This document shows, in pieces, positions 1-53,870 of a DNA stretch of 64,000 nucleotides; positions within the stretch are counted from its first letter, which is position 1, and every line of letters begins with the position of its first letter. The stretch is from NCBI RefSeq assembly GCF_041886205.1, contig NZ_CP169029.1; one strand, 5' to 3'. Position numbers and translations under genes: made by a program. Source of the DNA: Escherichia coli (GTDB taxonomy: Bacteria; Pseudomonadota; Gammaproteobacteria; Enterobacterales; Enterobacteriaceae). Below the pieces are notes generated by a model. It had not been told where the DNA came from. It did not search any database and saw only the letters and a list, made by a program, of their open reading frames with translations.

Positions 1-651
1 GCTCAAGATATCGGTAAACTGCATTCATCGAGGAAAGTCTCGCCAGATTGGTATTCCAAGTTACCAATCCCTTGGAACAAAACTGTTACTTGGATCGATA
101 GTTCGAGCCCTAATGAAGCAGGTGCAGAAGAACATAAGGGTAATGGTCGTTACTATAATCAACGAGAAGTCCGGCTACTGCTAGAGGCTTTGCAGTCATT
201 GTCGAGTGATGGCTGCATTGCACAGCTTGAGCAAACTATTACCACAGAACAGCCATATCCTATTGGTATAATCACAATGTATCGTCAGCAAAAAGAGGAA
301 ATTGACAATGCTATCAGTCGGGCTGAATGGGCTGCATCGTTACGTGGTTTGATCAAGATCGATACCGTTGATTCATATCAGGGCCATGAAAACAAGATAA
401 TTATCCTCAGTCTGGTTCGCGATAATCCCAACAAACTACAAGGTTTCCTGCGCGACGCGCCGCGAATAAACGTTGCTATTTCGCGAGCTCAAGAAAGGTT
501 ATTGATTCTGGGAGCAAGGCGTATGTGGTCAAAGACCAATAATGATTCAGCACTTGGAAACGTTCATGAATTTATTAGTAAACAGGTTGCAGTAGATGAA
601 CCCAACTACCAAATCCTGTGTGGTCAAAGTCTGCTTGGAGATAACAACTAA
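1..651 (+). CDS. SF1 (Upf1/DNA2-like) helicase, C-terminal part only; 5' end lies upstream of the window
   Basis: Frame 1 is open from position 1 to the stop at 649-651. Translation carries helicase C-terminal motifs (DTVDSYQGHE, INVAISRAQERLLILG) resembling the C-terminal helicase core. Confidence 0.6.
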   Translation, partial: AQDIGKLHSSRKVSPDWYSKLPIPWNKTVTWIDSSSPNEAGAEEHKGNGRYYNQREVRLLLEALQSLSSDGCIAQLEQTITTEQPYPIGIITMYRQQKEEIDNAISRAEWAASLRGLIKIDTVDSYQGHENKIIILSLVRDNPNKLQGFLRDAPRINVAISRAQERLLILGARRMWSKTNNDSALGNVHEFISKQVAVDEPNYQILCGQSLLGDNN

Positions 652-2198
652 TGTCAGAACCACGTCTGGGTAATCTGATTACCGTTTTACTACCTGCGCG
701 TAGTTACAAGATCAACTGCGCTTTGACCACTGAAAAACTGATGCCTGGAATTGAACAGTTTGCATGTCGCTTGCTGCTGATTTTTGATCAACTCTATCCC
801 AGCGAGTTACAGAATTACTTTGGTCTAACTGATCGTGAGCGAGAGGTATTGCTTGATGGGTTGCTGGCTAACAGACTGATCAACATTAATCCTGATGGGC
901 ATATTGAGGCTAGCTCATTCCTACGTAAGCATGCAGCTAATAATGGTGGGAAGCCAAGTTTAGTTAAATATCAAGAATGTACGGAGGAAGTTGCATTCGA
1001 TCTACTAACTCTTTCGATATGTAAACCGCAACCAAATCGTCGTTTTACTTCTGGACTGCCAGAGCTATTGCCGCGGCATCAGATCGGGGGAGATGCTGCT
1101 GCGGTAACAGAGGCTTTTAGTTCCCAGTTTAGGCACCATCTTTTGCTCAGCCGCAACAGCGAGTATGAGCGTCAACGGACTAAATTATATAAGATAATGG
1201 GCTGTAGTTCGCATGAGATGGTGCAGCTCCCAATAGAGATAGAGGTTAGCTACGGTGTTTCTGCTGGGAGCATTGAGCCGCAGAAATTTACTCGTTCCTA
1301 TGAATATTTAGGTAACACCCGGCTGCCGCTTTCAAACGAGCTGGAAGCTCATATCGCAGATTTTTTGGGAGAACATAAACTAGATGAATTCGGTATCGAC
1401 TGTGAAGATTTCTGTAAACTAGCAAATGATAAAGTGTTGTTACAATTTGCTAATGGTTATAAGTTCAACTATTCCGGCTGGATAGAGGCTCGTGAACAAC
1501 GTAAAACTGGCTACGGTACTTCATTGACTACCGGCATGTTAGGGGCTGTTTATTTGCCGCACAATTCTAAGCTGTTCATTAGTATGTTGCATAATGCATT
1601 ACGTGATTATATAGGTAAAACAGCTCCAAAAGCGCTGTGGTATAGCAGTAAAGTACCACTGTGGGGAGCTAATGGTAGTCAACTTTCGCGTTTTACTCGC
1701 GCTCTAGGCGATATACTTGGCAATTATGCCGATGATAAGATTGCTCGCATTTCGCTTTTACACTCAAGTGCAGATGAAGGTGAAAAACGTCAAGAGCGTA
1801 AGCGGCACTTAGGTCGTTTTCCTACCGGTATTGGCCTTACTTCAGAGGCTAAATTTGATCGTTTGGAGATCCTCTTAATTCCTGATGTGATTGCTTTGGT
1901 GCAATACCACGGTCAACCTAATTCTGATAGTGCATTAACCCTGCCGATTGGTTATATAACTGTTGAGCCAGAGCGTTTAGAATTACTTAAAAAACTAATG
2001 ATTAAGCGAACTGAAGGGGCTGTTGCAACCATTACTTGGTCTGAATCAAAATTTGAAAATTTAGCTTCGCTATTACCTGTTGAGTTTCTGATTAAACTGA
2101 ATAAGAAAAGCGGTGAAGATGTGGATGCTGCAATAAAAAAAATGCAGATCTATAACCGTGCTGAAACCGCACGGGCAATTTTATCGCTACGCAAGTAG
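651..2198 (+). CDS. Hypothetical 515-aa protein, translationally coupled to the upstream helicase
   Basis: ATG at 651 overlaps the helicase stop (TAATG); GGAG 13 nt upstream. Long uninterrupted ORF with no catalytic motif I can recognise. Confidence 0.6.
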   Translation: MSEPRLGNLITVLLPARSYKINCALTTEKLMPGIEQFACRLLLIFDQLYPSELQNYFGLTDREREVLLDGLLANRLININPDGHIEASSFLRKHAANNGGKPSLVKYQECTEEVAFDLLTLSICKPQPNRRFTSGLPELLPRHQIGGDAAAVTEAFSSQFRHHLLLSRNSEYERQRTKLYKIMGCSSHEMVQLPIEIEVSYGVSAGSIEPQKFTRSYEYLGNTRLPLSNELEAHIADFLGEHKLDEFGIDCEDFCKLANDKVLLQFANGYKFNYSGWIEAREQRKTGYGTSLTTGMLGAVYLPHNSKLFISMLHNALRDYIGKTAPKALWYSSKVPLWGANGSQLSRFTRALGDILGNYADDKIARISLLHSSADEGEKRQERKRHLGRFPTGIGLTSEAKFDRLEILLIPDVIALVQYHGQPNSDSALTLPIGYITVEPERLELLKKLMIKRTEGAVATITWSESKFENLASLLPVEFLIKLNKKSGEDVDAAIKKMQIYNRAETARAILSLRK

Positions 2199-2412
2199 CA
2201 TTTATATTGCAACGAATAAATTTTTCTAGGTTGCTATGAACTAGCTAAAGGGCAACAAATAGATAAACGGCGTTATTCATGTCAAATGAGATAATGTTAA
2301 ATTGATAGGGATTTATACCCCGCCGGCCATTTTGAATGGTCGGAGTTGTTATAAACGTTAAACCGCCCCGGAAATCCTGGAGACTAAACTCCCTGAGAAA
2401 GAGGTAAACAGG

Positions 2413-2739
2413 ATGACTAAAAATACACGTTTTTCCCCCGAAGTCCGTCAACGGGCAGTTCGTATGGTTCTGGAAAGTCAGGGCGAATATGACTCACAAT
2501 GGACAGCAATTTGTTCTATTGCCCCTAAGATTGGCTGTACACCGGAGACTCTGCACGTCTGGGTACTCCAGCATGAGCAGGATATTGGGGGCGGTGATGG
2601 TGGTTTCACCACCACTGAACGTCAGCGTCTGAAAGAGCTGGAACGTGAAAATCGTGAACTGAGCCGCAGTAACGATATCCTTCGCCAGGCTTCCACTTAT
2701 TTTGCGAAGGCGGAGTTCGACCGCCCCTGGAAAAAATAA
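2413..2739 (+). CDS. IS3-family transposase OrfA (IS629 OrfA-like, 108 aa)
   Basis: Translation MTKNTRFSPEVRQRAVRMVLESQGEYDSQW...LKELERENRELSRSNDILRQAS matches IS629/IS1203 OrfA as I recall it. Confidence 0.75.
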   Translation: MTKNTRFSPEVRQRAVRMVLESQGEYDSQWTAICSIAPKIGCTPETLHVWVLQHEQDIGGGDGGFTTTERQRLKELERENRELSRSNDILRQASTYFAKAEFDRPWKK

Positions 2740-3118
2740 TGCCACTGCTGGATAAGTCGCGTGAGCAGTACGGGATCGGACCGGTATGCAGTGAACTGCA
2801 TATTGCCCCGTCAACGTATTACCACTGTCAGCAACAGCGACATCATCCTGATAAACGCAATGCCCGTGCGCAGCGTGATGACTGGCTGAAGAAAAAGATA
2901 CCGTGCGTATACGATGTGCGTAAAGTCTGGCGTCAGTTGTTTCGGGAAGGTATCAGAGTGGCCAGATGCACTGTGGCACGTCTCATGGCGGTTATGGGGC
3001 TTGTCGGTGTTCTCTGGGGTAAAAGGTCCGCACTACCGTCAGCCGGAAAGCCGTTGCCGTAGACGACCGCGTAAACCGCCAGTTCGGGGCAAAGTCGTGG
3101 GTGGCTGATTTTACTTAC
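2739..3118 (+). pseudogene. IS3-family transposase OrfB, truncated and frameshifted
   Basis: Begins MPLLDKSREQYGIGPVCSELHIAPSTYYHCQQQRHHPDK like IS629 OrfB, but is short of a few residues versus the recalled sequence, stops after 107 aa, and continues in another frame (RQFGAKSWVADFTY) before homology ends. Confidence 0.6.
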
Positions 3119-3690
3119 GGTGTGCCCGGAGTTCAGGGTGAGCACGGATGCTGAAATGAACCATGAGTCTGTCTGGAATATGGAACAGATAACTCATGAC
3201 GAGAAGCCCAACAATCCCACCGGGTGTGACTGTGGTGAACCTGAGCGACTGTGACCTGCGGCATTCCCTAAGGATGATGTAACCCGCTGACAACGGGGAT
3301 TGAGGCGAGATCACTAAGCCGAGATGATCCTCAAGGTTGAGTGCTGAAAGGCTGAAGAACATGAACCCGTTAATCCGCCTCTGTGGGCTGAAAACGTCAC
3401 CACGGCCTACATGATCTGACAGGTCGTGCAGAAGTAACTGTCTGCGACACGTATGCGCGGGTCAGTCAAAGGTGTTCTGACATGTATGCAAAACACCGGG
3501 ACAGCAACGCCTATCACGCTCACGTTGCTGACTTCTGTCAACTTGCGGCAAGCAAGGACAAAGAGTGCGACGGGCAGCCTCCTCAGTATGTATGAGTTCA
3601 GACAGGTGAACTGGGGAAGGTCAGCGACGGATGTTAAGGAGGCAGTAAGCGTCAACGGAGCACCGTATTGACGCTTATTTATTGGTGAGA
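3119..3690 (+). mobile_element. Candidate group II intron 5' fragment (domain I-like structured RNA) inserted in the IS OrfB remnant; no intron-encoded protein ORF
   Basis: Starts GTGTGCCCGGAG...GGGTGAGCACGG immediately after the IS OrfB FTY codons, resembling the GUGYG...GGGUG start of bacterial group II introns. GC-rich, non-coding in all frames. Group II introns are known to target IS elements in E. coli. Confidence 0.25.
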
Positions 3691-3698
3691 ACTACGTT

Positions 3699-3900
3699 TC
3701 ATGGCAGGAGTTCGTCAACACGGTTGGATAGTAATGCACGGCTCAGTTCGACACCCTGTCGGGCAAAGATTTCACTCTGACGATACAGTGGCAGGTGTTC
3801 GCAGTATTTTCCCGTTAACACGCGGGCAAGTAATCCGGGGCCGCGATACCACGCTCTATCGGGCAGGACGGCGCCAATGATAGCATTTATACAAGCAATT
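3699..3900 (-). pseudogene. IS66-family transposase (TnpC) internal fragment
   Basis: Minus-strand translation ...GLLARVLTGKYCEHLPLYRQSEIFARQGVELSR... matches the conserved HLPLYRQSxIxARQGV block of IS66 TnpC, then hits a stop. Far too short for an intact gene. Confidence 0.45.
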
Positions 3901-4227
3901 CTGGGAGCTTATAGATTGTGTGCAAAACTTTTGATAGCAGGAGGTTACAACAGTATTGATGAAAAAGATCATTCAAATCGATTTATATATTTTGTTAATG
4001 TTATCTGTTTTCAATCTAATAACCACGAATATAGCTAATTATAGGATGATTACTAGTTTTGCTACCCTATCAACCAAACGTTCACCGGACATTAGAAAAC
4101 ATGGAAATTTCTTGTTTTTAAATGCTTTTTACACCAATAGAAAAATTTACATTCCAAAATCATTAGTCTTTGCGTAATCAAAAGATGTAATGGTTTTTTT
4201 CCTTACTACTTCTAGATAATCCGCCCA

Positions 4228-4345
4228 CTACAGCAACATCAACTTACGCTCATCTAAATGCTCCGCCTTATGGATATAAGCTACCCGCACTGAATTACAT
4301 TCCATGCGGCTCATCAGACGTCCAGTTGCTTTACTGTCTTCAGGG
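4228..4345 (-). pseudogene. P4-type integrase 3'-terminal fragment (remnant of an older island)
   Basis: Minus-strand translation ...ATGRLMSRMECNSVRVAYIHKAEHLDERKLMLL* aligns with the C-terminus of the intact integrase at 11064..12326 (...AVERQMSHQERNGVRAAYIHKAEHLEERRLMLQ...). No upstream catalytic region. Confidence 0.5.
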
Positions 4346-4584
4346 GGATGCTCTTGTAATCCCAACCTCTCGTGCTTTCTGAGCATAACACATCCATGTT
4401 GCTGCGATTATCTCTTAAACCCGTCCTTACCATTTTTATTGATACGATAAGGAACCTTCATCATACATGATCGATTTTGTCGATCGATTCGATCGAATTT
4501 TCTCTTTTTACCCTGTCTTTTACATGGTTTTAAAATAAGCACCCCATTTATTGTTCGGGGAAAGTGATAGCAGAGGTAACTGAA

Positions 4585-5313
4585 ATGAAAAAGATTATTG
4601 CGGTTTCAGCACTTGCTGTGGCAGGCATGTTTTCAGCCCAGACCCTGGCTGATGAGAGCAAAACAGGCTTTTATATGACCGGTAAGGCGGGAACTTCCGT
4701 TTTATCTCTTTCCAACCAGCGTTTTGTCGAAGGTGAAGGAGAGTGGGCGGACAGATACAAAGGTGACGATGACCATGATACGGTATTCAGTGGCGGTATT
4801 GCGGCCGGTTATGATTTTTATCCGCAGTTCAGTATTCCGGTTCGTACAGAACTGGAGTTTTACGCTCGTGGAAATGCTGACACGAAATATAATCTTTATA
4901 AAGACGACTGGTCGCGTGGTGACCTGAAGAACGAGGTGTCAGTCAACACTCTGATGCTGAATGCGTACTATGACTTCCGGAATGACAGCTCATTCACACC
5001 ATGGGTATCTGCAGGGATTGGCTACGCCAGAATTCACCAGAAAACAACCGGTATCAGTACCTGGGATTACGGGTATGGATACAGTGGTCGTGAATCGTTG
5101 TCACGTTCAGGCTCTGCTGACAACTTCGCATGGAGCCTTGGCGCGGGTGTCCGCTATGACGTCACCCCGGATATCGCTCTGGACCTCAGCTATCGCTATC
5201 TTGATGCGGGTGACAGCAGTGTGAGTTACAAGGGCGAGTGGGGCGATAAATATAAATCAGAGGTTGATGTTAAAAGTCATGACATCCTGCTTGGTGTGAC
5301 TTATAACTTCTGA
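4585..5313 (+). CDS. Outer-membrane beta-barrel protein (OmpA-like/opacity-type family), 242 aa
   Basis: Signal peptide MKKIIAVSALAVAGMFSAQTLA, alternating aromatic/hydrophilic beta-strand pattern, C-terminal ...LLGVTYNF ending in Phe. The ORF-track start at 4564 is probably an upstream extension. Confidence 0.7.
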   Translation: MKKIIAVSALAVAGMFSAQTLADESKTGFYMTGKAGTSVLSLSNQRFVEGEGEWADRYKGDDDHDTVFSGGIAAGYDFYPQFSIPVRTELEFYARGNADTKYNLYKDDWSRGDLKNEVSVNTLMLNAYYDFRNDSSFTPWVSAGIGYARIHQKTTGISTWDYGYGYSGRESLSRSGSADNFAWSLGAGVRYDVTPDIALDLSYRYLDAGDSSVSYKGEWGDKYKSEVDVKSHDILLGVTYNF

Positions 5314-5390
5314 CGACACTGCTTCTGAATGATAATTGCGCATATTTCTGCAATTAAGATAATTACGTATTTCTGTAATTAAAAAGGAAC

Positions 5391-5435
5391 ACCCTGCAGT
5401 AATATTATACTGCAGGGTTGTCTGTTATCTGCTTT
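5391..5435 (+). terminator. Putative rho-independent terminator after the outer-membrane protein gene
   Basis: Perfect 11-bp inverted repeat accctgcagta/tactgcagggt followed by a T-rich tract. Confidence 0.4.
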
Positions 5436-5488
5436 ACAGGATATTTCTGATTTTTATTATCTTATTCTCTTTATATTAAGATATTTCG

Positions 5489-6988
5489 ATGAGTATCATA
5501 AAACTATTTTTTCCGGACAATACATCCCGAATTTTATTGTTTTTATTCTTTTTTGTTGTTTCTGTCATAACCACAATTGCATGCGGATACACTGAGAAGA
5601 ATACCACCGGGAATGTGTTGCTGCTGTTCTTTCTTCTGCTTCTTGCACACAGAAATACCCTCACATCCATTACAGCGCTGTTATTTCTGTTCTGTTGTGC
5701 ACTGTATGCGCCTGCCGGTATGACGTACGGTAAAATCAACAACAGTTTTATTGTCGCGTTGTTGCAGACCACGGCTGATGAGGCAGCGGAGTTTACCGGG
5801 ATGATTCCTGTTTATCATTTTCTGGTCAGTGCCGCGATTCTGGTATTCATGGTGATTTTCTGGCGAACACACCACCGCGGTCACCGTAACTGGCTGGCAC
5901 TGCTGCTATTCGTATTATGCTCTGTAAACAGCTGGCCGTTGCGGATGGTTAAAGGAACCGTTGTGGGGACAACTGACACATTGCGTGAAATGCAGCGTTA
6001 TAAACAACTGAGTCAGCACGGGGCTGACAGCTGGAAAATCCTGCCGGGTGTACCGTTGTATGACACGATTGTTATTGTTACTGGTGAGAGTGTGCGCAGG
6101 GATTATATGTCGGTATATGGCTATCCCGTGCCAACCACACCGTGGCTGAATACTGCTCCCGGTTTATTTATTGACGGCTATACATCGGCAGCAGCCAGTA
6201 CCGTACCTTCCCTGAGCCGGACACTGATTTATGACTATGAGCAGAACCCTGATTCCGGCAACAACGTGGTGGCGCTGGCAGCAAAATCAGGATACAGCAC
6301 ATGGTGGATATCCAATCAGGGAAAACTGGGAGAGCATGACACACGCATCTCTGTTATTGCTTCTGATGCGGAGCATACCGTTTTCCTCAAGAAAGGCAGC
6401 TTCGCTTCCCGTAAAACGGATGATATGTTGTTGTTACAGGAAACAGAACGTGCGCTGGCGGATACATCCTCTCCGAAGGTGATTTTCCTGCACATGATTG
6501 GCTCTCATCCGAATCCGTGTGACCGACTTAACTCCTGGCCGAATCATTACCTGGAGCAGTATCCCCGAAAGATTGCCTGTTACCTCGCCAGCATCAGTAA
6601 ACTGGATAACTTTCTCGGTCAGCTTGATGGTATCCTTCGCCGGCATTCCCGTCATTTCGCCATGCTTTACTTTTCTGACCATGGACTGTCGGTCAGCGAC
6701 AGCGCTAATCCTGTTCATCATGATGGTCATGTGCAGGGAGGCTACAGCGTTCCCCTGATTATTACCGCCAGTGACATCACGTCTCATCAGTCCGTCAGCA
6801 GAAAAATCAGTGCCCGTCATTTCGCAGGTATTTTTCAGTGGCTGACCGGCATTCGTACTGAAAATATACCGCCATTCAATCCGCTGACAGACGAAGATAA
6901 TGAACCCGTTATGGTTTTTAACGGGGAGAGGAATGTACCGGCAGACAGTCTGAAACCGCAGCCTCTGATTCTTCCGGACAGAAGATAA
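5489..6988 (+). CDS. Sulfatase-family phosphoethanolamine transferase-like inner-membrane protein (EptA/YhbX-like), 499 aa
   Basis: N-terminal multi-span hydrophobic region followed by a soluble domain with sulfatase-like signatures (IVTGESVRRDY, HMIGSHPNPCDRL). Exact start codon uncertain. Confidence 0.65.
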   Translation: MSIIKLFFPDNTSRILLFLFFFVVSVITTIACGYTEKNTTGNVLLLFFLLLLAHRNTLTSITALLFLFCCALYAPAGMTYGKINNSFIVALLQTTADEAAEFTGMIPVYHFLVSAAILVFMVIFWRTHHRGHRNWLALLLFVLCSVNSWPLRMVKGTVVGTTDTLREMQRYKQLSQHGADSWKILPGVPLYDTIVIVTGESVRRDYMSVYGYPVPTTPWLNTAPGLFIDGYTSAAASTVPSLSRTLIYDYEQNPDSGNNVVALAAKSGYSTWWISNQGKLGEHDTRISVIASDAEHTVFLKKGSFASRKTDDMLLLQETERALADTSSPKVIFLHMIGSHPNPCDRLNSWPNHYLEQYPRKIACYLASISKLDNFLGQLDGILRRHSRHFAMLYFSDHGLSVSDSANPVHHDGHVQGGYSVPLIITASDITSHQSVSRKISARHFAGIFQWLTGIRTENIPPFNPLTDEDNEPVMVFNGERNVPADSLKPQPLILPDRR

Positions 6989-7096
6989 TCATGTCGGTAT
7001 GAATGTTATAATTAAGGACCGTGCAATAATAGCCATTCCATTCAGCCATCTTACGCTCGAAAACAATCGATAAGATGGCTACTCACCATTCCTGCT

Positions 7097-10000
7097 CTAA
7101 ACCTGACGCCTCTCAAGACTATTATAAATAGCCTCAATCTCACCCTTCAGGTTATCACCGCAATAAACCATTGAGGTATCGTATCGTTCATATCGCGCTT
7201 CCCGTGTCGCACTAAACCAGTTGAACGATCCCACGCACAGCAAACCATCATCACCAATAACAATTTTGCTATGAACACGGTTTACCAGCTTTGTAGCAAT
7301 ACCCAGCGCATTCAGTTTCTCCAGCGCCGCTTTAAAGTTTTGCTGCTTCTCTTTTCGCTTCTCAAAATCATTATGTTCAGTGTTGTAGCTTCTGTCAGTG
7401 ACTATCGTGACGTTAATTCCACGTGAACACGCCGCAATCATGGAATCAAGAAAACCTGTTTGCTCCAGCCTTTGCCAGGTCAGCCATGGAGAAACTATCG
7501 TGATGTGTTTACTGGTATTTTCAAATGTCTGATTCAGGAAATTATCATGTTGCTCCACACCATGAAGTGTGTAGATTTTGGTCCCGGAGGTTTTTAAATC
7601 CTTACGCTCTTTATAATCAAAAGAGAGCGCATTCTTCTCTGACTCAAAGAGGTATTTTGCCAGTAATCCCCGTGGAGATGAGGCTGGCTGGACCTCAAAC
7701 AGGTCCATATCGCCGAAGACCAGAAAACTGTCCTTCGCACGGGAGACTGCAACATTCAGCATGCTGTTATCGCTATCAATAAACCCGCCGTCTTCATGTT
7801 TTGAATAGACTGGCGAGAATATCACAATCGCTCTTTCCGCTCCCTGAAGAGAGTGCACGGTGCCCACTGTGAGCGACTTTTCATTCGAGCCTGTACTGAT
7901 ACCTTGTTTGCCCAGCGCCTGTTTGATAGTGGATACCTGAGCGCTAAAAGGCGTCACGATACCGACAACTTCATGAAGCGATTTACCGTAATGCGCTTCA
8001 ATATTTTGTTGGTTCTCTGCCAACCAGACCGCTATCGTTTCAGCCTCAAGCAAATTATATCGACTTCCACTACTTGCCAGCTCTCCTTTACCATCAATAT
8101 GGAGATACCCCATTGCGGGCATTAAATTGCTCTCTTCACGCCCTCTTTTAGGCAACAACTTACCGTGATAGCAGAGCGTATTACAGTATCCAATAATATT
8201 GTCGTAGCACCGGCGGTGTTCATATAGGGACATACCACGAGCCAGTTCGGGATCATATTGATAGCGCGAAGCAAACTGCGCTATTTTCATAACGCTGCCA
8301 GATGCGGCACTTTTACCAAGGTCTGCGATTGCCGTATATTTCTCGGTAATCTCTTCTTGCGTACTGCCAGACAGAATTTTTTCCGCCAGCATGTTACCGA
8401 CATCAATCGCAGGAGCAATACTCCATATTGGCGGGAGCTGCTCCGTATCGCCAATCACTAATGCCTTCTTAGCTAATGCAAACGAGGCAGCAGCCACTTC
8501 AGGAAGCACCTGCCCGGCTTCATCGACAATGAGTAAATCGGCAAAATCATACAAATAACTTTTCTCGAATTTACGCTGTCCTTTGTGCTCACTTATCTGC
8601 ATATTGCCGGGCAGCATATAGCATGTCATCACCACACATGGAGTGAGTTTCATTCGACGTTGCCAACGGGCAGTTACCCCTTTAGCGCCTTTTTTCTTCT
8701 TCTCTTCCTGCAGATCATCAATGCTGGCCATATCCATCAGCCAACGACCTTCCCAGTAGTGAGTCGTCAGTAAAAATGCAGGGAAGCGAATCTGCGTATC
8801 AGCCAGTTCATCGGCCTGTGAGAAGCTCAGTTCCTCGTCGCCCTCATACCCTAAATTAAGAGCCAGTCTCTGCCACTCCTGAACCGCCTGCTGTTCTTTA
8901 AGAATGATTTCATGGGCGGAATCAATCTGCTGCCGGTATGTTGTTTGCTCGCGCTCAGCGGAATTGAGCAGCCCATCAATATTACGTTCGATAGTTTCAG
9001 GATCAGACCACTGATTTCCTGCAATCAGCGCACCTAATTTATCTTCGAGAAACAGCTGTATTTGGTACTGTCGCTTACTGCGAACCACCGGGAGCCAGGA
9101 AAATAATGAATAGATCAGTGATTCACCGGCGCGATATTTTTTCCATTCCGTTTTAGCACTTTTCAGTAGAGTGATTTTTTGTTCTTGTCCGGAAAGTAAT
9201 TTATTTAAATTATCGAGATATTGCTCAATGTCGTTAGCAATAAGCTCACGCGCAGCCCGTACCTGGCTTAACGTTTGCCATGTTGCGTTCAGTCTTATCA
9301 GTTGCTCGGATTTTGCTGCCAACTGACCATGCAGGAGTTCAATGACCTTTTCAGGGGATGAACAATCTTTTTCAGGAAAGGCTGCCTTAGCCTTCTCCAG
9401 ATAAAACAGCAGTGCATCCTCTACATACTCTTTTGACTCAACCTGGTTGAAGAAATCTTCAGTTTGATATTTTTTGGCTGCCTCAGCTTTACGAGTGCTT
9501 GAGGGAAAATAAGCGCCGAAGCTTTTCAGCTCAGGTAACCATCGTCCGGCCATTGCACCAGTGCCCTGTGAAAAATCTTTCCCGAACGCTTCGATAATGT
9601 TCGTTACAGCCTGGTTGTTCGTTGAAGTCGCGATAATTACCGGAGGCTCAGATTTTTCGAGAGCCGCTCTGGCCCACTGCGTGGCGATGATAGAAAGCAC
9701 CAGCGTGGTTTTTCCGGTTCCCGGAGGTCCATTAACAGCAAGGATATCGCCATGTCTTGCATCCAGAAAATGGCTTAAGGCATCGCGCTGAGCCTTTGCC
9801 AGCGGAAACTTATCTCCGGAGTGTCCAAGCCTGTCGCTGAATTTTGCGCCTGGGGCCAGCAAAGACTCTGCAGCATGAACCTCTCGCGAGGCGAAGCGAT
9901 TGAAGAGCGGCACAACCTTCTTGCAAACAAGCAGGTGATCATAAAGAGAAAGGATATGGAAACAGGCACCGCCAGATTGCGCCGTTTTAACAATATAACC

Positions 10001-10612
10001 GTGCTCAGCGAGTTCATATTGCTCAGGATTTTTAATCCAGTCGCCGGCAACGTTCTTCAGCAGCCTCTCTGAATCATCCAGATATTGACGCCACTCCTGC
10101 TGCAAGGCTGCATATCGTGCTTCCCGTTCTTCATCCGTTTCGGCAGTCTTATCAATGCCGTCATCAAAGTTGATAGAGAACGAGGTATGGATTGTCTTGT
10201 ATTTGTCATACTGCCCAATCTCACCAATCGAAAATGCTCCTTTTGGCAAAGGTTCAAGCAGGTCTCTGGGAATGGAGGTCGCTGGCGTCGGATATAAAAA
10301 ACCCTCACGGCTTAGCAAGGCTGGCGTCACTATCGGGGTAACAATATCAGGCGCGCCTGCGGAACGGTCCTTACCATGCTGCAGTAACCGGAAATAAACT
10401 TTTGGGCGCAAGATGACATCGACCGTTTCGACATCGTCTTTTTCTCCCTTAAAAAATTTACTGACAATCGCTTCGTCAAGACGTCCCGCCGCTATCCCAT
10501 GCCAGTGAGTGAAATTTTTGGCGTCTTTCCGTTCAAAACTGCCCTTTCCTGACTCAGCATCCGCAAGCGAGTTGCGCCAGTATGAGGTAAACCCTAAAGC
10601 ATTTTCATCCAT
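7097..10612 (-). CDS. SF1 helicase (Upf1/DNA2-like) fused to a C-terminal PLD-family (HKD) nuclease domain, 1171 aa; candidate single-gene antiphage defense protein
   Basis: Walker [15 protein letters not shown]; Walker B/motif [11 protein letters not shown]; [11 protein letters not shown]; C-terminal helicase motifs [14 protein letters not shown] and [16 protein letters not shown]; C-terminal [19 protein letters not shown] is an exact HxK(x)4D(x)6GSxN phospholipase-D motif. ATG at 10612..10610 with AGGA upstream. Confidence 0.75.
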
Positions 10613-10665
10613 TACCAGTCCTGTGACTCAATGAAATCCATTGATTTATCGAATATAAAACCACC

Positions 10666-10688
10666 ATATGGACAACTATTGTCCATAT
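10666..10688. promoter_or_regulatory. Perfect 10-bp inverted repeat (atatggacaa-cta-ttgtccatat) 54-76 bp upstream of the helicase-PLD start; candidate operator
   Basis: Palindrome read directly from the sequence, located in the upstream region of the minus-strand gene starting at 10612. Confidence 0.3.
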
Positions 10689-11009
10689 TGAAAAAATTGG
10701 ATGCAATGTTTTGTTTATAATTCGATATCAAATGTACTGGTTGTACAAGGTTCAGAACACAAGCACATTCAACAGTACGTCAGGACTATTGATTTCATAA
10801 CAGTGAATACATTTTTTACCGTTTATAATGACTGCCTGTGTTGGACAAGGATACCAGAACAGCCGAAAACACCGGGGGTTATTACCTGCTCTCATGGAAA
10901 CCAGATATTCCTGGTGCTAATCACAGTCATAAATAGCCTGAAGAACATGACGAAGGGACTTTAATGGACGCCGGAGTAACTTGCCAGAACATCAATCTTC
11001 GTCATCATT

Positions 11010-11060
11010 TACAAAGAAAAATAATCAGTTAAAGCAGTCCGGGCTGATTGCCCGGACTGC
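11010..11060 (-). terminator. Putative rho-independent terminator downstream of the integrase
   Basis: Perfect inverted repeat gcagtccggg/cccggactgc immediately after the integrase stop, followed on the minus strand by a T-rich tract. Confidence 0.45.
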
Positions 11061-11063
11061 TTA

Positions 11064-12326
11064 CTATTTTAATGGATTGTTAATTTTTGCATATTCAAAC
11101 GGACTGATACCCTTCTCCCGGTTCGCATCCAGAAAATCGGCCCACCATTGCAACATCAGTCGCCGTTCTTCCAGATGTTCTGCTTTATGGATATACGCAG
11201 CACGTACACCATTACGCTCCTGATGGCTCATCTGACGTTCCACAGCATCGCGGGACCACAAACCTGATTCAATCAATGCACTGCACGCCATCGCCCGGAA
11301 TCCATGGCCACAGACATCCTGGGTTGTGTCATACCCCATCACCCTCAGGGCTTTATTTACAGTATTTTCACTGATTGGTTTACGCGGGTCATGTGCTCCC
11401 GTAAAGATCAGACCATTTTCACCAGCCCATGTCTGTAGTTCTGCCAGTATGGCTACAGCCTGTTTGCTGAGTGGCACAAGATGTGGTGTTCGCATCTTGG
11501 AGCCCCGGTGTGAGAATTTTACGCCAGGCAGAGGTTCGCGTTCGGCTGGAATAGTCCACATGGCATTGTCAATATCAATTTCAGACCAGCGGGCGTATCT
11601 GAGTTCACTGGAACGAATAAAAACCAGTAAATTCAGCATAACTGCCAGTCGGGTGACAGGCTGGCCTTTATAACCGTCAATACGCGACAGAAGTTCAGGC
11701 AGGCGTGAAAGATCCAGTGCAGGGCGATGCTGGCGTTTTACCGTGGTCAATGCACCAGCCATATCCAGAGCCGGGTTATATCTGATGATGCCAGACTGTA
11801 CGGCATAACGCATTACAGCAGATATTCTTTGCTGCAGACGACTGGCGATTTCATAAATTTGTTTAGCTTCTGCAGCACGAACAGGGATAAGCAGGTCCGG
11901 GGTACTGAGTGTTGTGATATCCCGGTTGCCGATAAAGGGGAAAACGTGTGTCTCGAGGCTTTTGAGTACTTTATCGCTGTGTGATTGTGCCCATTGTTTA
12001 TTACTGGCATGCCAGCGTCGTGCAATATGTTCAAAAGAGAGTTGTAAATCAGGGACTACTTTTTTAGCTCTTTTCAGTTCGCAAGGGTCAATCCCCTCCG
12101 AAATCAGTTTTCGGGCCTCATCCCGTTTTGTACGAGCTTCGGAGAGAGAAACTTCTGGATACACACCAAGTGCCAGAGTCTTCTCCTTACCCAGAATACG
12201 ATAACGGAGACGCCAGTAACGGGAACCATTAGGATGAACCAGTAGGAACATGCCAGCCCCGTCAGTGAGTTTATAAGCCTTGTCAGTGGGCTTTGCAGCC
12301 CGGATTTTTGCGTCAGTCAGTGCCAT
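11064..12326 (-). CDS. P4-type phage integrase (tyrosine recombinase), island integrase next to tRNA-Phe
   Basis: Translation from the internal Met: MALTDAKIRAAKPTDKAYKLTDGAGMFLLVHPNGSRYWRLRYR... (typical P4-family N-terminus); C-terminal catalytic region with HGFRAMA...YIHKAEHLEERR. The ORF-track start at 12389 is an upstream extension. Confidence 0.85.
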   Translation of the reverse strand: MALTDAKIRAAKPTDKAYKLTDGAGMFLLVHPNGSRYWRLRYRILGKEKTLALGVYPEVSLSEARTKRDEARKLISEGIDPCELKRAKKVVPDLQLSFEHIARRWHASNKQWAQSHSDKVLKSLETHVFPFIGNRDITTLSTPDLLIPVRAAEAKQIYEIASRLQQRISAVMRYAVQSGIIRYNPALDMAGALTTVKRQHRPALDLSRLPELLSRIDGYKGQPVTRLAVMLNLLVFIRSSELRYARWSEIDIDNAMWTIPAEREPLPGVKFSHRGSKMRTPHLVPLSKQAVAILAELQTWAGENGLIFTGAHDPRKPISENTVNKALRVMGYDTTQDVCGHGFRAMACSALIESGLWSRDAVERQMSHQERNGVRAAYIHKAEHLEERRLMLQWWADFLDANREKGISPFEYAKINNPLK

Positions 12327-12486
12327 AGTATAGCCTTCTGAATGCGTTAAAGAGGGTACAAATTCTGTCGAACTGGGGTATGCCCGCAATTATACCCACA
12401 CAATGGGGTTGATGTGGGGGGAATCTGGTTGAGTTCGGTAGAATTGATTTGTAGGTAGAACGCTTAAATTGTGGCGTTCTGAAACG

Positions 12487-12513
12487 AAAAACGGACCTCC
12501 GTGGAGGTCCGTT
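12487..12513 (-). terminator. Rho-independent terminator of tRNA-Phe
   Basis: Hairpin acggacctcc/ggaggtccgt directly 3' of the tRNA on the minus strand, followed by a TTTTTCGTTT run. Confidence 0.5.
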
Positions 12514-12523
12514 GATATGAATT

Positions 12524-12599
12524 TGGTGCCCGGACTCGGAATCGAACCAAGGACACGGGGATTTTCAATCCCCTGCTCTACCGACTGAGCTATCCGGGC
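12524..12599 (-). tRNA. pheV: tRNA-Phe (pheV locus by synteny with yqgA-speC)
   Basis: Reverse complement reads GCCCGGATAGCTCAGTCGGTAGAGCAGGGGATTGAAAATCCCCGTGTCCTTGGTTCGATTCCGAGTCCGGGCACCA, the E. coli tRNA-Phe sequence including CCA. Confidence 0.95.
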
Positions 12600-12704
12600 A
12601 ACGGGGCGCATTAAACCTGATTCGCCTCGTCTCGTCAATCAAATTTCTTCAATTTACTGCAGACTGCACAATCTATCATCACTTTGCCGCTATTGCACGC
12701 ATTG

Positions 12705-21159: not shown

Positions 21160-21190
21160 GAAAGCATACGGGCGATGACAAATGCAAAAC

Positions 21191-21272
21191 TGCCTGATGC
21201 GCTACGCTTATCAGGCCTGGAAAGATGCACGATCGAGTAGGCGGGATAAGGTGTTTACGCCGCATCCGGCAT
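21191..21272. repeat. REP (repetitive extragenic palindromic) elements
   Basis: gcctgatgcgctacgcttatcaggcc and gccgcatccggca motifs typical of E. coli REP/BIME. Confidence 0.7.
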
Positions 21273-21342
21273 GGAAAACGCGTACTTTGTTATCAATCTG
21301 GGGCCAGCAAATGCTGGCCTGATTTTTTCTTGAGGGAAGACT

Positions 21343-23400: not shown

Positions 23401-24408
23401 GTGAAAAAGCAATGGATTGTTGGCACGGCACTGCTTATGTTGATGACTGGTAATGCCTGGGCAGATGGCGAACCGCCAACTGAAAATATCTTAAAAGATC
23501 AATTCAAAAAGCAGTATCACGGCATTCTCAAGCTTGATGCTATCACCTTAAAAAATCTTGATGCTAAGGGTAATCAGGCCACCTGGTCAGCGGAAGGCGA
23601 TGTCTCTTCCAGTGACGATCTCTATACCTGGGTCGGTCAGTTGGCAGATTACGAACTGCTCGAACAGACCTGGACGAAAGATAAACCGGTAAAATTCTCG
23701 GCGATGTTAACCAGTAAAGGAACGCCCGCGTCTGGCTGGTCGGTGAACTTTTACTCTTTTCAGGCGGCAGCCAGCGATCGTGGGCGGGTGGTCGACGATA
23801 TCAAAACGAATAATAAATATCTGATCGTGAATAGCGAAGATTTCAATTATCGCTTTAGTCAGCTTGAATCTGCGTTGAATACCCAGAAGAACTCGATTCC
23901 TGCGCTGGAAAAGGAAGTGAAAGCGCTTGATAAGCAAATGGTGGCGGCGCAGAAAGCAGCGGATACATATTGGGGAAAAGATGCAAACGGTAAGCAAATG
24001 ACCCGCGAAGAAGCCTTTAAAAAAATTCACCAACAGCGTGATGAGTTTAATAAACAGAACGATAGCGAGGCGTTCGCGGTTAAATATGACAAAGAGGTTT
24101 ATCAACCGGCGATTGCGGCATGTCATAAACAGAGTGAAGAGTGTTATGAAGTGCCGATTCAGCAGAAACGAGATTTCGATATCAACGAACAACGGCGACA
24201 GACTTTTCTGCAATCACAAAAACTTAGCCGTAAATTGCAGGATGACTGGGTAACGCTCGAAAAAGGGCAATATCCCTTAACGATGAAAGTTTCAGAAATA
24301 AACAGTAAAAAAGTCGCGATTTTGATGAAGATTGACGATATCAATAAGACCTGCGATCGCTGGAAAAAAGATACCGAAGCATTACGGCGCAATGGGGTGA
24401 TTAAGTAA
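23401..24408 (+). CDS. yggM: Periplasmic protein YggM (DUF1202)
   Basis: MKKQWIVGTALLMLMTGNAWADGEPPTEN..., 335 aa. Confidence 0.88.
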   Translation: MKKQWIVGTALLMLMTGNAWADGEPPTENILKDQFKKQYHGILKLDAITLKNLDAKGNQATWSAEGDVSSSDDLYTWVGQLADYELLEQTWTKDKPVKFSAMLTSKGTPASGWSVNFYSFQAAASDRGRVVDDIKTNNKYLIVNSEDFNYRFSQLESALNTQKNSIPALEKEVKALDKQMVAAQKAADTYWGKDANGKQMTREEAFKKIHQQRDEFNKQNDSEAFAVKYDKEVYQPAIAACHKQSEECYEVPIQQKRDFDINEQRRQTFLQSQKLSRKLQDDWVTLEKGQYPLTMKVSEINSKKVAILMKIDDINKTCDRWKKDTEALRRNGVIK

Positions 24409-24424
24409 GTTTGATATAGCGCAC

Positions 24425-24648
24425 GATTTGTAGCAGGATGCGGCGTTGACCCCGCATCCGGCAATCAACGTCTGATGCGACGCTTGCGCGTCTTATCAGA
24501 CCTACAACCGCTGCCACATGTCGGCTGAGGCGCTCACGCCGCATCCGACAATCAACGTCTGATGCGATGCTTGCGCGTCTTATCAGACCTACAAACGTTG
24601 CCACATGTAGGCTGGATAAGGCGTTCACGCCGCATCCGGCAATACAAG
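24425..24648. repeat. BIME cluster: tandem REP elements between yggM and hemW
   Basis: Three copies of gccgcatccggcaa / gtctgatgcga(c/t)gcttgcgcgtcttatcagacctacaa palindromic units. Confidence 0.75.
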
Positions 24649-24649
24649 T

Positions 24650-25786
24650 TTACTCCGCCAGAAAAAGCTCCAGCAGCGAATTTAAAAACAACTTCCCATG
24701 TTCCGTTATCTGCCAGTAATCCGCACATTCGGTGAGATAACCCTGGGCAATCGCCTCGTCTAACTGTGGGCGAATCACATCTTCGCAAAGCCCGGTATAC
24801 GCAATAAACTCCACGCGCGGCGCGGCCTCCAGCAGACGGAAGCGATTCATAAAGAACTCAAACGGCTTATCTGCGGCTTCGACATCACGCTGGCTTTCCA
24901 GATACCTTCCTTGCATAAAACCACGAGGATGACGCGTTTTAGTGGTACGCAGGATGCGCCCATCCGGGAAGGTGACTTTGCCGTGTGCGCCGCAGCCGAT
25001 GCCGATGTAGTCGCCAAATCGCCAGTAGTTGAGATTGTGCTGGCATTGATAACCTGGTTTGGCGTAAGCGGAAGTTTCATATTGCTGATAACCCGCTGCG
25101 GTTAACAACTGATGCCCCTGTTCGAATATATCCCACAGCGCGTCATCGTCCGGCAGTACAGGAGGGCGCGAGCCAAACAGCGTATTGGGTTCGATGGTCA
25201 GTTGATACCAAGAAAGATGCGGAGGATTCAGTTCAATAGCCTGGCGTAGATCGCCAAGCGCCTCTTCCAGTGATTGATCCGGCAGCCCATGCATCAAATC
25301 AAGGTTAAAGCTACGTAACCCTAAACCGCTCGCCAGCTTTGCCGCTCGTTTCGCTTCTTGCGGGCCATGAATGCGCCCAAGTCGTTTCAGCTTTTCTTCG
25401 CTAAAACTCTGCACACCAATAGAGATGCGGTTCACACCAGCACGCTGATAATCGACAAAGCGATCGGCTTCTACTGTTCCAGGGTTCGCTTCCATAGTAA
25501 TTTCTGCATCCGCTGCCAGCGGCAAACGCGCACGCACGCCGTCCAGCAGCGTTTGCATCGCCGGGCCGGAAAGCAGGCTCGGCGTACCACCGCCAATAAA
25601 GATTGTCTTTACTTCACGGCCCTGAGCGTAAGCCACATCGTTGTCCAGATCGTTAAGCAGATGCTGAACATAATCGTCGTGCGGCACTTCTCCTTTCAAC
25701 GCGTGAGAGTTGAAATCGCAGTACGGGCATTTCTGCACGCACCACGGGATGTGAATGTAGAGACTCAGCGGCGGTAATTTAACCAT
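24650..25786 (-). CDS. hemW: Radical-SAM heme chaperone HemW (YggW)
   Basis: [27 protein letters not shown]... (CxxxCxxC radical-SAM motif), 378 aa. Confidence 0.92.
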
Positions 25787-28964: not shown

Positions 28965-29095
28965 CCGATGCGCAAGTTTATAGGGCCTATAAAGGCAATA
29001 AATGTCTGATGCGACGCTAACGCGTCTTATCAGACCTACAGCCGCTGCCAGATGTGTGCTGGATAAGGCGTTCACGCAGCATCCGGCAAAATGGC
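28965..29095. repeat. REP elements
   Basis: gtctgatgcgacgctaacgcgtcttatcagacctac and gccggatgctgcgtgaacgcc motifs. Confidence 0.7.
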
Positions 29096-41062: not shown

Positions 41063-41185
41063 ATGCGATGCCACCCGTAGGCCGGATAAGATGCAGTCAG
41101 CATCGCATCCGGCAATGCGCACAGGGTAACAAATGTGCCATTGATGTCAGATGCGGCGTGAACGCCTTATCTGACCTACGTTCGA
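41063..41185. repeat. REP elements
   Basis: gccggataagatgcag...gcatccggcaatg and gatgcggcgtgaacgccttatctgacctac palindromic units. Confidence 0.7.
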
Positions 41186-53748: not shown

Positions 53749-53756
53749 GCCAAAAG

Positions 53757-53870
53757 CAAAATTGCCTGATGCGCTACGCTTATCAGGCCTACACGTATCC
53801 TGCAATATATTGAATTTGCAGGTTTTTGTAGGCCGGATAAGGCGTTCACGCCGCATCCGGCATGACAAAG
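53757..53870. repeat. REP elements
   Basis: gcctgatgcgctacgcttatcaggcctac and ggccggataaggcgttcacgccgcatccggca palindromic units. Confidence 0.7.

Follow-up and report, generated by a model that had tools for sequence, protein, structure and literature searches.

The DNA analysed here is a 64-kb stretch of Escherichia coli sequence (hereafter the window), and the site under study is the 241-bp gap at 24409–24649 between the convergent genes yggM (+) and hemW (−). The flanking genes are as follows.

23401–24408, + strand: yggM; open reading frame, Pfam DUF1202 (E 2.4e-195), RefSeq annotation of the identical DNA in strain 6EVA
24650–25786, − strand: hemW, radical SAM heme chaperone; open reading frame, Pfam Radical_SAM and HemN_C, RefSeq annotation

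A sequence-only reading of the window had named the gap as the interval between convergent yggM and hemW, and the open reading frames, Pfam domains and RefSeq annotation bear this out. On its side of the gap, hemW is the last gene of a same-strand cluster, yggS-yggT-yggU-rdgB-hemW, that converges on the array described below. When complete E. coli genomes were searched by BLAST with a 1,051-bp query spanning the site, strains 6EVA and wlxctx60 were 100% identical to it, and 5,425 of 5,426 genomes gave a match.

Five REP palindromes fill the yggM–hemW gap

Repeat searches, pattern matching, hairpin folding and Rfam alignment resolve five repetitive extragenic palindromes (REPs) in the gap, all of them confined to the stretch from the yggM stop codon (24408) to that of hemW (24650).

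24430–24462: Y REP no. 1 (Y1); GTAG followed by the imperfect palindrome GCAGGATGCGG...CCGCATCCGGC; called from the sequence and its inverted repeat
24470–24505: Z2 REP no. 1 (Z2a); palindrome GTCTGATGCGACGC...GCGTCTTATCAGAC followed by CTAC; called from the inverted repeat and a 36-nt pattern
24520–24549: Y REP no. 2 (Y2); 4 nt shorter than Y3, with GTAG degenerated to GTCG; called from the direct-repeat family and Rfam alignment
24557–24592: Z2 REP no. 2 (Z2b); one mismatch relative to Z2a; called from repeat search, pattern match, hairpin and Rfam alignment
24607–24640: Y REP no. 3 (Y3); the most canonical copy, GTAGGCTGGATAAGGCGTTCACGCCGCATCCGGC; called from an exact 14-mer core, repeat search and hairpin

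The order is Y-Z2-Y-Z2-Y in alternating orientation, that is, two full Y+Z2 pairs and a terminal Y, with linkers of 4 nt (CAAC) and 11 nt. The gap had been described as holding three consecutive REP pairs; we count instead three Y and two Z2 units, or 2.5 pairs, and find no sixth REP in the 21 nt before the array or the 9 nt after it. The description of REPs filling nearly the whole interval is accurate, as units and linkers together span 24430–24643 and occupy 214 of the 241 bp. The stem of the first REP lies 24 nt from the yggM stop codon, and that of Y3 lies 9 nt (24641–24649) from the hemW stop codon.

Direct-repeat search and Tandem Repeats Finder (TRF) divide the same sequence into tandem units.

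24436–24522 and 24523–24609: two complete 87-nt tandem units, 89% identical, followed by a third, partial copy that runs to 24643

Hairpin folding is predicted for all five units. As DNA, Y1 folds at −11.2 kcal/mol (z = −3.8) and Y2 at −12.9 kcal/mol (z = −4.8), and the Z2a hairpin has z = −4.1; Y1 and Z2a align to the Y and Z2 hairpins, respectively, of the Rfam family naRNA4. Relative to shuffled sequence, the whole gap folds with z-scores of −6.7 (+ strand) and −6.4 (− strand). The 36-nt Z2 sequence has three matches at up to 3 mismatches in the 64-kb window, against 0.00 expected from shuffles, and the 14-nt Y core has 31 matches against 9.8 ± 3.5 expected.

The array also stands out among the repeats of the window. 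TRF run on the whole 64 kb reports a single array, at 24452–24643 (period 87, 2.2 copies, 89% matches, score 310), and the longest direct-repeat family window-wide is a 94-nt unit of this same array. The remaining REP sites hold one or two units each, which upholds the earlier description of the gap as the window's largest repeat block.

21179–21278: REP site, BIME-1-like; Z1, a linker of ~20 nt and Y
28996–29090: REP site
41075–41179: REP site
53751–53864: REP site, BIME-1-like; Z1, a linker of ~35 nt and Y

The array has the architecture of a BIME-2 element

Its palindromes are imperfect and ~30–40 nt long, with the core GCCGGATG...CATCCGGC or GCCTGATG...CATCAGGC, as is typical of REP (PU) sequences, which carry a GTAG/CTAC tetranucleotide at one end; GTAG or CTAC is present in four of the five units, Y2 carrying GTCG. 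Bacterial interspersed mosaic elements (BIMEs) of the second type are defined as z2 and y units joined by short linkers in multiple tandem copies, the number of which varies between strains (PMC3333891). BIME-1 elements are single-copy combinations of z1 and y, whose long L linker is conserved and often includes a site for IHF (PMC3333891). The yggM–hemW array shows every sequence feature of the former, namely alternating Y and Z2 units, short linkers, tandem copies and a strain-variable unit number, and lacks both Z1 and the long L linker of the latter. On these features the array is a BIME-2, built of three Y and two Z2 palindromes placed head-to-head as well as tail-to-tail.

This assignment bears on the proposal that the cluster binds IHF, which would make it an element of the BIME-1 (RIB/RIP) type. 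The resemblance extends to inverted REP palindromes in 3′ untranslated intergenic DNA, and the short linker, which reads AATCAACGTCTGA and occurs twice in the array, is one mismatch from the IHF consensus WATCAANNNNTTR. However, RIB/RIP elements combine Z1, a single copy and a conserved long linker with an IHF site, and the array, with neither Z1 nor a linker longer than 11 nt, shares none of this; it is to the L linker of BIME-1, and not to BIME-2, that IHF sites are assigned (PMC3333891). The two BIME-1-like elements of the window itself, at 53751–53864 and 21179–21278, are likewise built differently from the yggM–hemW array. A strict scan for the exact consensus WATCAANNNNTTR finds two matches in the 64 kb and none in the gap; it is a weak test, as the linkers of the two BIME-1-like elements just named escape it too. 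We reject IHF binding mainly because Z1 and the long linker are absent from the array, and consider an IHF-type identity extremely improbable.

The locus corresponds to REP217 of K-12 and resembles REP325

In K-12 the orthologous element goes by the name REP217 and is entered as 'Convergent', between hemW and yggM, at 3098414–3098534 (supplement to bioRxiv 10.64898/2026.03.23.713779), a range that corresponds to the three REPs we call in the 154-bp K-12 gap. The K-12 MG1655 locus is orthologous, with the same flanks in convergent orientation, and its first Y, its Z2 and its terminal sequence are identical to those of the window; it differs in having three REPs in 154 bp where the window has five in 241 bp, a difference of one extra Z2+Y unit. 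By sequence comparison, then, the window array is the five-REP, expanded allele of REP217 and was already catalogued. The sequence-only reading had called it a BIME cluster ordinary for E. coli, and both its BIME-2 features and its K-12 listing agree with that.

A second known relative is REP325, the BIME-2 between yjdM and yjdN that encodes naRNA1–6 and likewise consists of tandem units in which Y and Z2 hairpins alternate. REP325 has 12 units as opposed to five, and is flanked by tandem genes of one operon, whereas convergent genes flank the yggM–hemW array. The Rfam model RF02564 (naRNA4), derived from REP325's Y+Z2 unit, matches the array twice, scoring 60.9 and 64.3 bits where the gathering score is 59.5.

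24432–24502, + strand: RF02564 (naRNA4) match, both hairpins aligned
24519–24589, + strand: RF02564 (naRNA4) match, both hairpins aligned

These two + strand matches above the gathering score raise the idea that the array yields naRNA4-like non-coding RNAs, which would bind HU and help to condense the nucleoid, HU binding having been reported for the naRNAs of REP325 (PMC4550694). Because the naRNA4 model effectively fits any Y+Z2 unit, the matches speak to the type of sequence and structure and not to function. The Y–Z2 linker is also 7 nt in the array (Rfam register) against 13 nt in REP325/naRNA4, 6 nt shorter. Furthermore, REP325 and naRNA4 were found to give no measurable chromosome compaction, and REP–REP contacts were not formed (bioRxiv 10.64898/2026.03.23.713779). 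We therefore regard a nucleoid-condensing RNA from this gap as very improbable.

Strains carry one, three or five REPs at the site

The sequence-only reading had proposed comparing REP copy number at this site between strains. That comparison, made on two systematic samples of 59 E. coli chromosomes each, yields alleles of one, three and five REPs and, with an array-free allele, at least four states of the gap among E. coli genomes. Alleles were scored in these samples because BLAST query coverage does not separate them: three-REP genomes also cover 100% of the query.

241/242 bp, five REPs: the window, O157:H7, H1827/12 and ws5-3; 5/59 in sample 1 and 4/59 in sample 2
150/154 bp, three REPs: K-12, O104:H4 C227-11, LHM10-1 and JNEC-KY202; 26/59 and 27/59
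63/64/68 bp, one REP: AR Bank 0346, LB19b, 488 and TUM11356; 12/59 and 12/59
3.2 kb, three-gene TRAP transporter operon and no BIME: SE15, RM11911 and AL.H8; 16/59 and 16/59

The five-REP allele of the window is the largest array observed and a minority one, at ~8% of sampled genomes, among which none had more than five REPs. An exact count of the yggM–TRAP junction places the operon in 1,465 of 5,426 genomes (27%).

Aligned to the window, three of the shorter alleles are each explained by one contiguous deletion whose ends fall inside sequence common to two Y REPs.

K-12 allele, 154 bp: window allele minus 87 bp; breakpoint interval 24523–24528; 1 mismatch (the flank SNP)
LHM10-1 allele, 150 bp: window allele minus 91 bp; breakpoint interval 24534–24548; 0 mismatches
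AR Bank 0346 allele, 63 bp: window allele minus 178 bp; breakpoint interval 24452–24466; 1 mismatch

The step from the K-12 to the AR Bank 0346 allele is similarly a clean 91-bp event with 0 mismatches. The O157:H7 allele shows many mismatches to the shorter alleles in the same ungapped single-deletion comparison, being shifted by a 1-nt indel in the flank. Thus the 1-, 3- and 5-REP alleles differ by single events of 87, 91 or 178 bp that end in homologous Y-REP stretches, which is direct sequence evidence that the cluster is, as had been suggested, a recombination substrate; allele pairs alone do not give the direction, gain or loss, of each event.

The flank SNP, C or T at base 12 of the gap, groups the 241-bp allele of the window with the 150-bp allele of LHM10-1, and the 154-bp allele of K-12 with the 63-bp allele. 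The pairing is broken by H1827/12, which has five REPs with T, and by JNEC-KY202, which has 150 bp with T, indicating that allele lengths are not tied to one flank background.

The expanded array arose within E. coli

To place these alleles in order, ancestral states were scanned in one genome per species carrying YggM, which gave five informative Escherichia loci. In E. albertii, E. whittamii, Escherichia sp. E1V33 and a cryptic-clade 'E. coli', the gap is 64 bp long and holds a single Y REP, whose orientation and distance to the hemW stop codon are as in E. coli; the fifth locus, in Escherichia sp. MOD1-EC7003, has a TRAP operon in the gap. The 64-bp single-REP haplotype also occurs in E. 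coli LB19b and 488. We accordingly read the ancestral Escherichia state as a 64-bp gap with one Y REP, and this single REP as old. Since other Escherichia species have the 64-bp, one-REP gap, the Z2-containing array arose within E. coli.

In the same scan, tblastn alignments that stopped at residue 365 gave an appearance of HemW C-terminal divergence in the outgroups, which proved to be an artefact of alignment trimming. Walking the reading frames shows the last 13 residues of HemW to be identical in four of the five outgroup loci, with one substitution in MOD1-EC7003.

The allele comparison gives the course of events. A Z2+Y unit was gained within E. coli, and duplication and renewed loss of the 87- or 91-nt unit, by recombination or slippage between directly repeated Y REPs, followed, giving rise to alleles of 1, 3 and 5 REPs. 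The added unit resembles the Z2+Y unit at 28996–29089, which lies 4.4 kb off in the window and is 87% identical. Such similarity is consistent with a unit copied from another BIME-2.

Predicted role at the 3′ ends of two converging transcripts

A terminator scan of 24200–24900 found no intrinsic terminator inside the gap, and none of the five hairpins has a U/T tract next to it. In the absence of such a terminator, yggM and hemW have no structured 3′ elements other than the REP hairpins, and any termination should rely on Rho or pausing. The array has in common with bidirectional intrinsic terminators a palindrome in a short convergent gap that can form a hairpin in both transcripts, but differs from them in lacking the flanking U/T tract. 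Of the REPs found between convergent genes, nearly 40% lie in predicted bidirectional terminators, and REPs in this position correlate with higher expression of both genes (bioRxiv 10.64898/2026.03.23.713779). In the same study, REP325, with its 12 units, works as a terminator that depends in part on Rho and as a stabiliser of upstream mRNA; mRNA stabilisation is documented for some REPs and depends on context. The variance between loci is large, terminal REPs are not generally linked to longer mRNA half-life, and short REP fragments show no Rho dependence (bioRxiv 10.64898/2026.03.23.713779).

The K-12 locus itself is represented in the supplement to that preprint. On the hemW-sense strand, peaks are listed at 3098511–3098610 without NusG (P_R10_2587, +) and at 3098526–3098610 with NusG, their overlap with REP217, at its yggM-proximal end, being 23 and 8 bp; a BST at 3098480–3099197 overlaps the REP217 peaks (bioRxiv 10.64898/2026.03.23.713779 and its supplement). 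Mapping of the K-12 coordinates onto the window projects the longer peak onto the following interval.

~24356–24455, − strand: projected K-12 rut-type peak, covering the last 52 nt of yggM and overlapping the array at its yggM-proximal end

Here we take BST to stand for bicyclomycin-sensitive transcript and the peaks to be Rho-utilisation (rut-type) sites, the columns being undefined in the main text of the preprint.

Taken with the architecture of the gap, these observations suggest how the array may work. Both converging transcripts would run into it and fold into stacked hairpins, which in either transcript could block 3′-to-5′ exonucleases. The hairpins may also help to pause RNA polymerase, with Rho ending read-through on the array's far side. 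In this way the array would serve as a two-way 3′-end element that keeps transcription of yggM and of hemW from colliding. We infer all of these functional steps from the literature on BIME-2 and REP elements and from one K-12 data table, and consider the array most likely to be a bidirectional RNA 3′-end element that acts as an mRNA stabiliser and a partial Rho terminator. For the reading as a whole, that is, a five-REP BIME-2 allele of REP217 that originated within E. coli and has a bidirectional 3′-end role, we estimate a probability of roughly 85%.

The position of Y3 may have a secondary consequence. In work cited in PMC12306157, a REP located 15 nt or less after a stop codon is reported to stall ribosomes and lower translation of the upstream gene. 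The 9-nt spacer of hemW falls within this distance and the 24-nt spacer of yggM lies outside it; possibly, then, Y3 dampens HemW translation.

Possible action on DNA and the weight of the extra units

The array could instead act chiefly on DNA, as a strong, transcription-independent gyrase site and topological insulator that absorbs the positive supercoils of the converging units. Gyrase binding, which the sequence-only reading ascribed to such clusters, is documented for BIME-2 (PMC6379681). Gyrase cleavage sites are over-represented in BIME-2, with Y cut more often than Z2 and a BIME-2 signal that rises when transcription is blocked (PMC6379681), and BIME-2 elements are found mostly at borders between supercoiling regions (PMC10592627). 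Three Y units between convergent genes would suit such a role. The over-representation, however, concerns only 'a subset' of BIME-2 (PMC6379681), and yggM, yggW and hemW are not mentioned in the searchable Topo-Seq supplementary tables of that study, which may use coordinates in place of names. We consider it unlikely that gyrase accounts for the main role of the array; as a secondary effect alongside the proposed 3′-end function, its Y REPs may possibly be preferred cleavage sites.

A different challenge comes from the variation among strains. The array may be selectively neutral repeat DNA, a by-product of REP proliferation through TnpA-REP (RAYT) activity, gene conversion and slippage that has no function at the site. 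Strains differ freely in copy number (1, 3 or 5), the TRAP operon takes the place of the array in 27% of genomes, the GTAG of Y2 is degenerate, and the units are now 89% identical; variation in BIME-2 copy number is, moreover, a general feature linked to TnpA-REP activity (PMC3333891). Set against this are the conservation, across the range from E. albertii to E. coli, of a REP 9 nt off the hemW stop codon, the lack of any other terminator in the gap, and the overlap of a rut-type peak and a BST with the K-12 element. On balance we find complete neutrality doubtful, if still a reading to be taken seriously.

Neutrality of the extra units alone is compatible with a functional single ancestral REP. 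Because the locus tolerates one, three or five REPs, or a TRAP operon in their place, extra REP copies would carry little selective weight, which suggests that the extra units matter little. Conversely, unit number (1, 3 or 5) could be a heritable, strain-specific dial that sets survival of, and read-through between, the hemW-operon and yggM transcripts, with the gap serving as a recurrent point of exchange between TRAP operon and array; we think this quite improbable.

Implications

As a textbook BIME-2 at a locus annotated in K-12, of a kind whose copy-number variation between strains has long been described, the array is in itself of little significance. The analysis corrects the record for this site, which holds five REPs of the BIME-2 and not the IHF type, in one of at least four states of the gap. 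Its natural alleles of one, three and five REPs on near-identical flanks provide a ready series in which effects of REP number on termination, mRNA stability and gyrase binding could be compared.

A TRAP transporter operon in place of the BIME

Among the complete E. coli genomes, 1,465 of 5,426 (27%) carry a TRAP transporter operon in the yggM-hemW gap instead of the BIME. It consists of three genes, for a substrate-binding protein and for a small and a large permease, and in this haplotype the entire intergenic sequence between the two stop codons is swapped out. The operon is represented by E. coli SE15 (locus L007), recurs in comparison loci L003-L006 and L015, and likewise occupies the gap in Escherichia sp. 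MOD1-EC7003. The relevant SE15 features are as follows.

L007 8887-11722: TRAP operon
L007 11723-11777: yggM-TRAP gap, 55 bp, directly after yggM

Within the 55-bp gap lies a short hairpin, TTTGCCGGATAA-(loop)-TTATCCGGCAAA, with T and A runs on its flanks, which looks like a bidirectional intrinsic terminator. Its stem is similar to the outer stem of a Y REP.

E. coli strain 488 has a premature stop codon in yggM, at about position 440-450 of its locus (L019), and the annotated coding sequence ends 60 nt ahead of the usual stop. A 289-bp contig filed as Caballeronia mineralivorans (NZ_AEJF01000363.1) encodes YggM residues 1-64, 97% identical to those of E. coli, and probably reflects contamination of the assembly with E. 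coli DNA.

A genomic island at tRNA-Phe

A genomic island adjoins tRNA-Phe at window positions 1-12600.

12524-12599, minus strand: tRNA-Phe
11064-12389, minus strand: integrase
7097-10612, minus strand: 1,171-aa fusion of an SF1 helicase with a PLD nuclease domain
5489-6988: sulfatase/phosphoethanolamine-transferase-like protein
4564-5313: outer-membrane beta-barrel protein
651-2198: 515-aa ORF
190-651: helicase C-terminal fragment

The anti-phage models PLuB, ProA and Hhe match the helicase-PLD protein weakly, and the 515-aa ORF has no match in Pfam or NCBIfam. An IS3-family transposase remnant lies at 2413-3062, comprising orfA with HTH_Tnp_1 and a truncated orfB with HTH_21 only. Within it, the Rfam model of the ALIL frameshift pseudoknot matches at 2694-2810 (107 bits). 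No terminal inverted repeats turned up close to the remnant.

Other REP elements in the window

REP sequences occur at four further sites in the window.

21179-21278: BIME-1-like element (Z1 REP, linker of ~20 nt, Y REP)
28996-29090: REP pair, a single Z2+Y BIME-2 unit
41075-41179: REP pair
53751-53864: BIME-1-like element (Z1 REP, linker of ~35 nt, Y REP)

The two BIME-1-like elements share 81-95% identity, and the one at 53751-53864 overlaps an Rfam ES036 (CssrF) sRNA match scoring above the gathering score (53785-53827, minus strand). Because the Z2+Y unit at 28996-29090 is 87% identical to the yggM-hemW array unit at 24549-24642, it may be a relative or donor of the array units.
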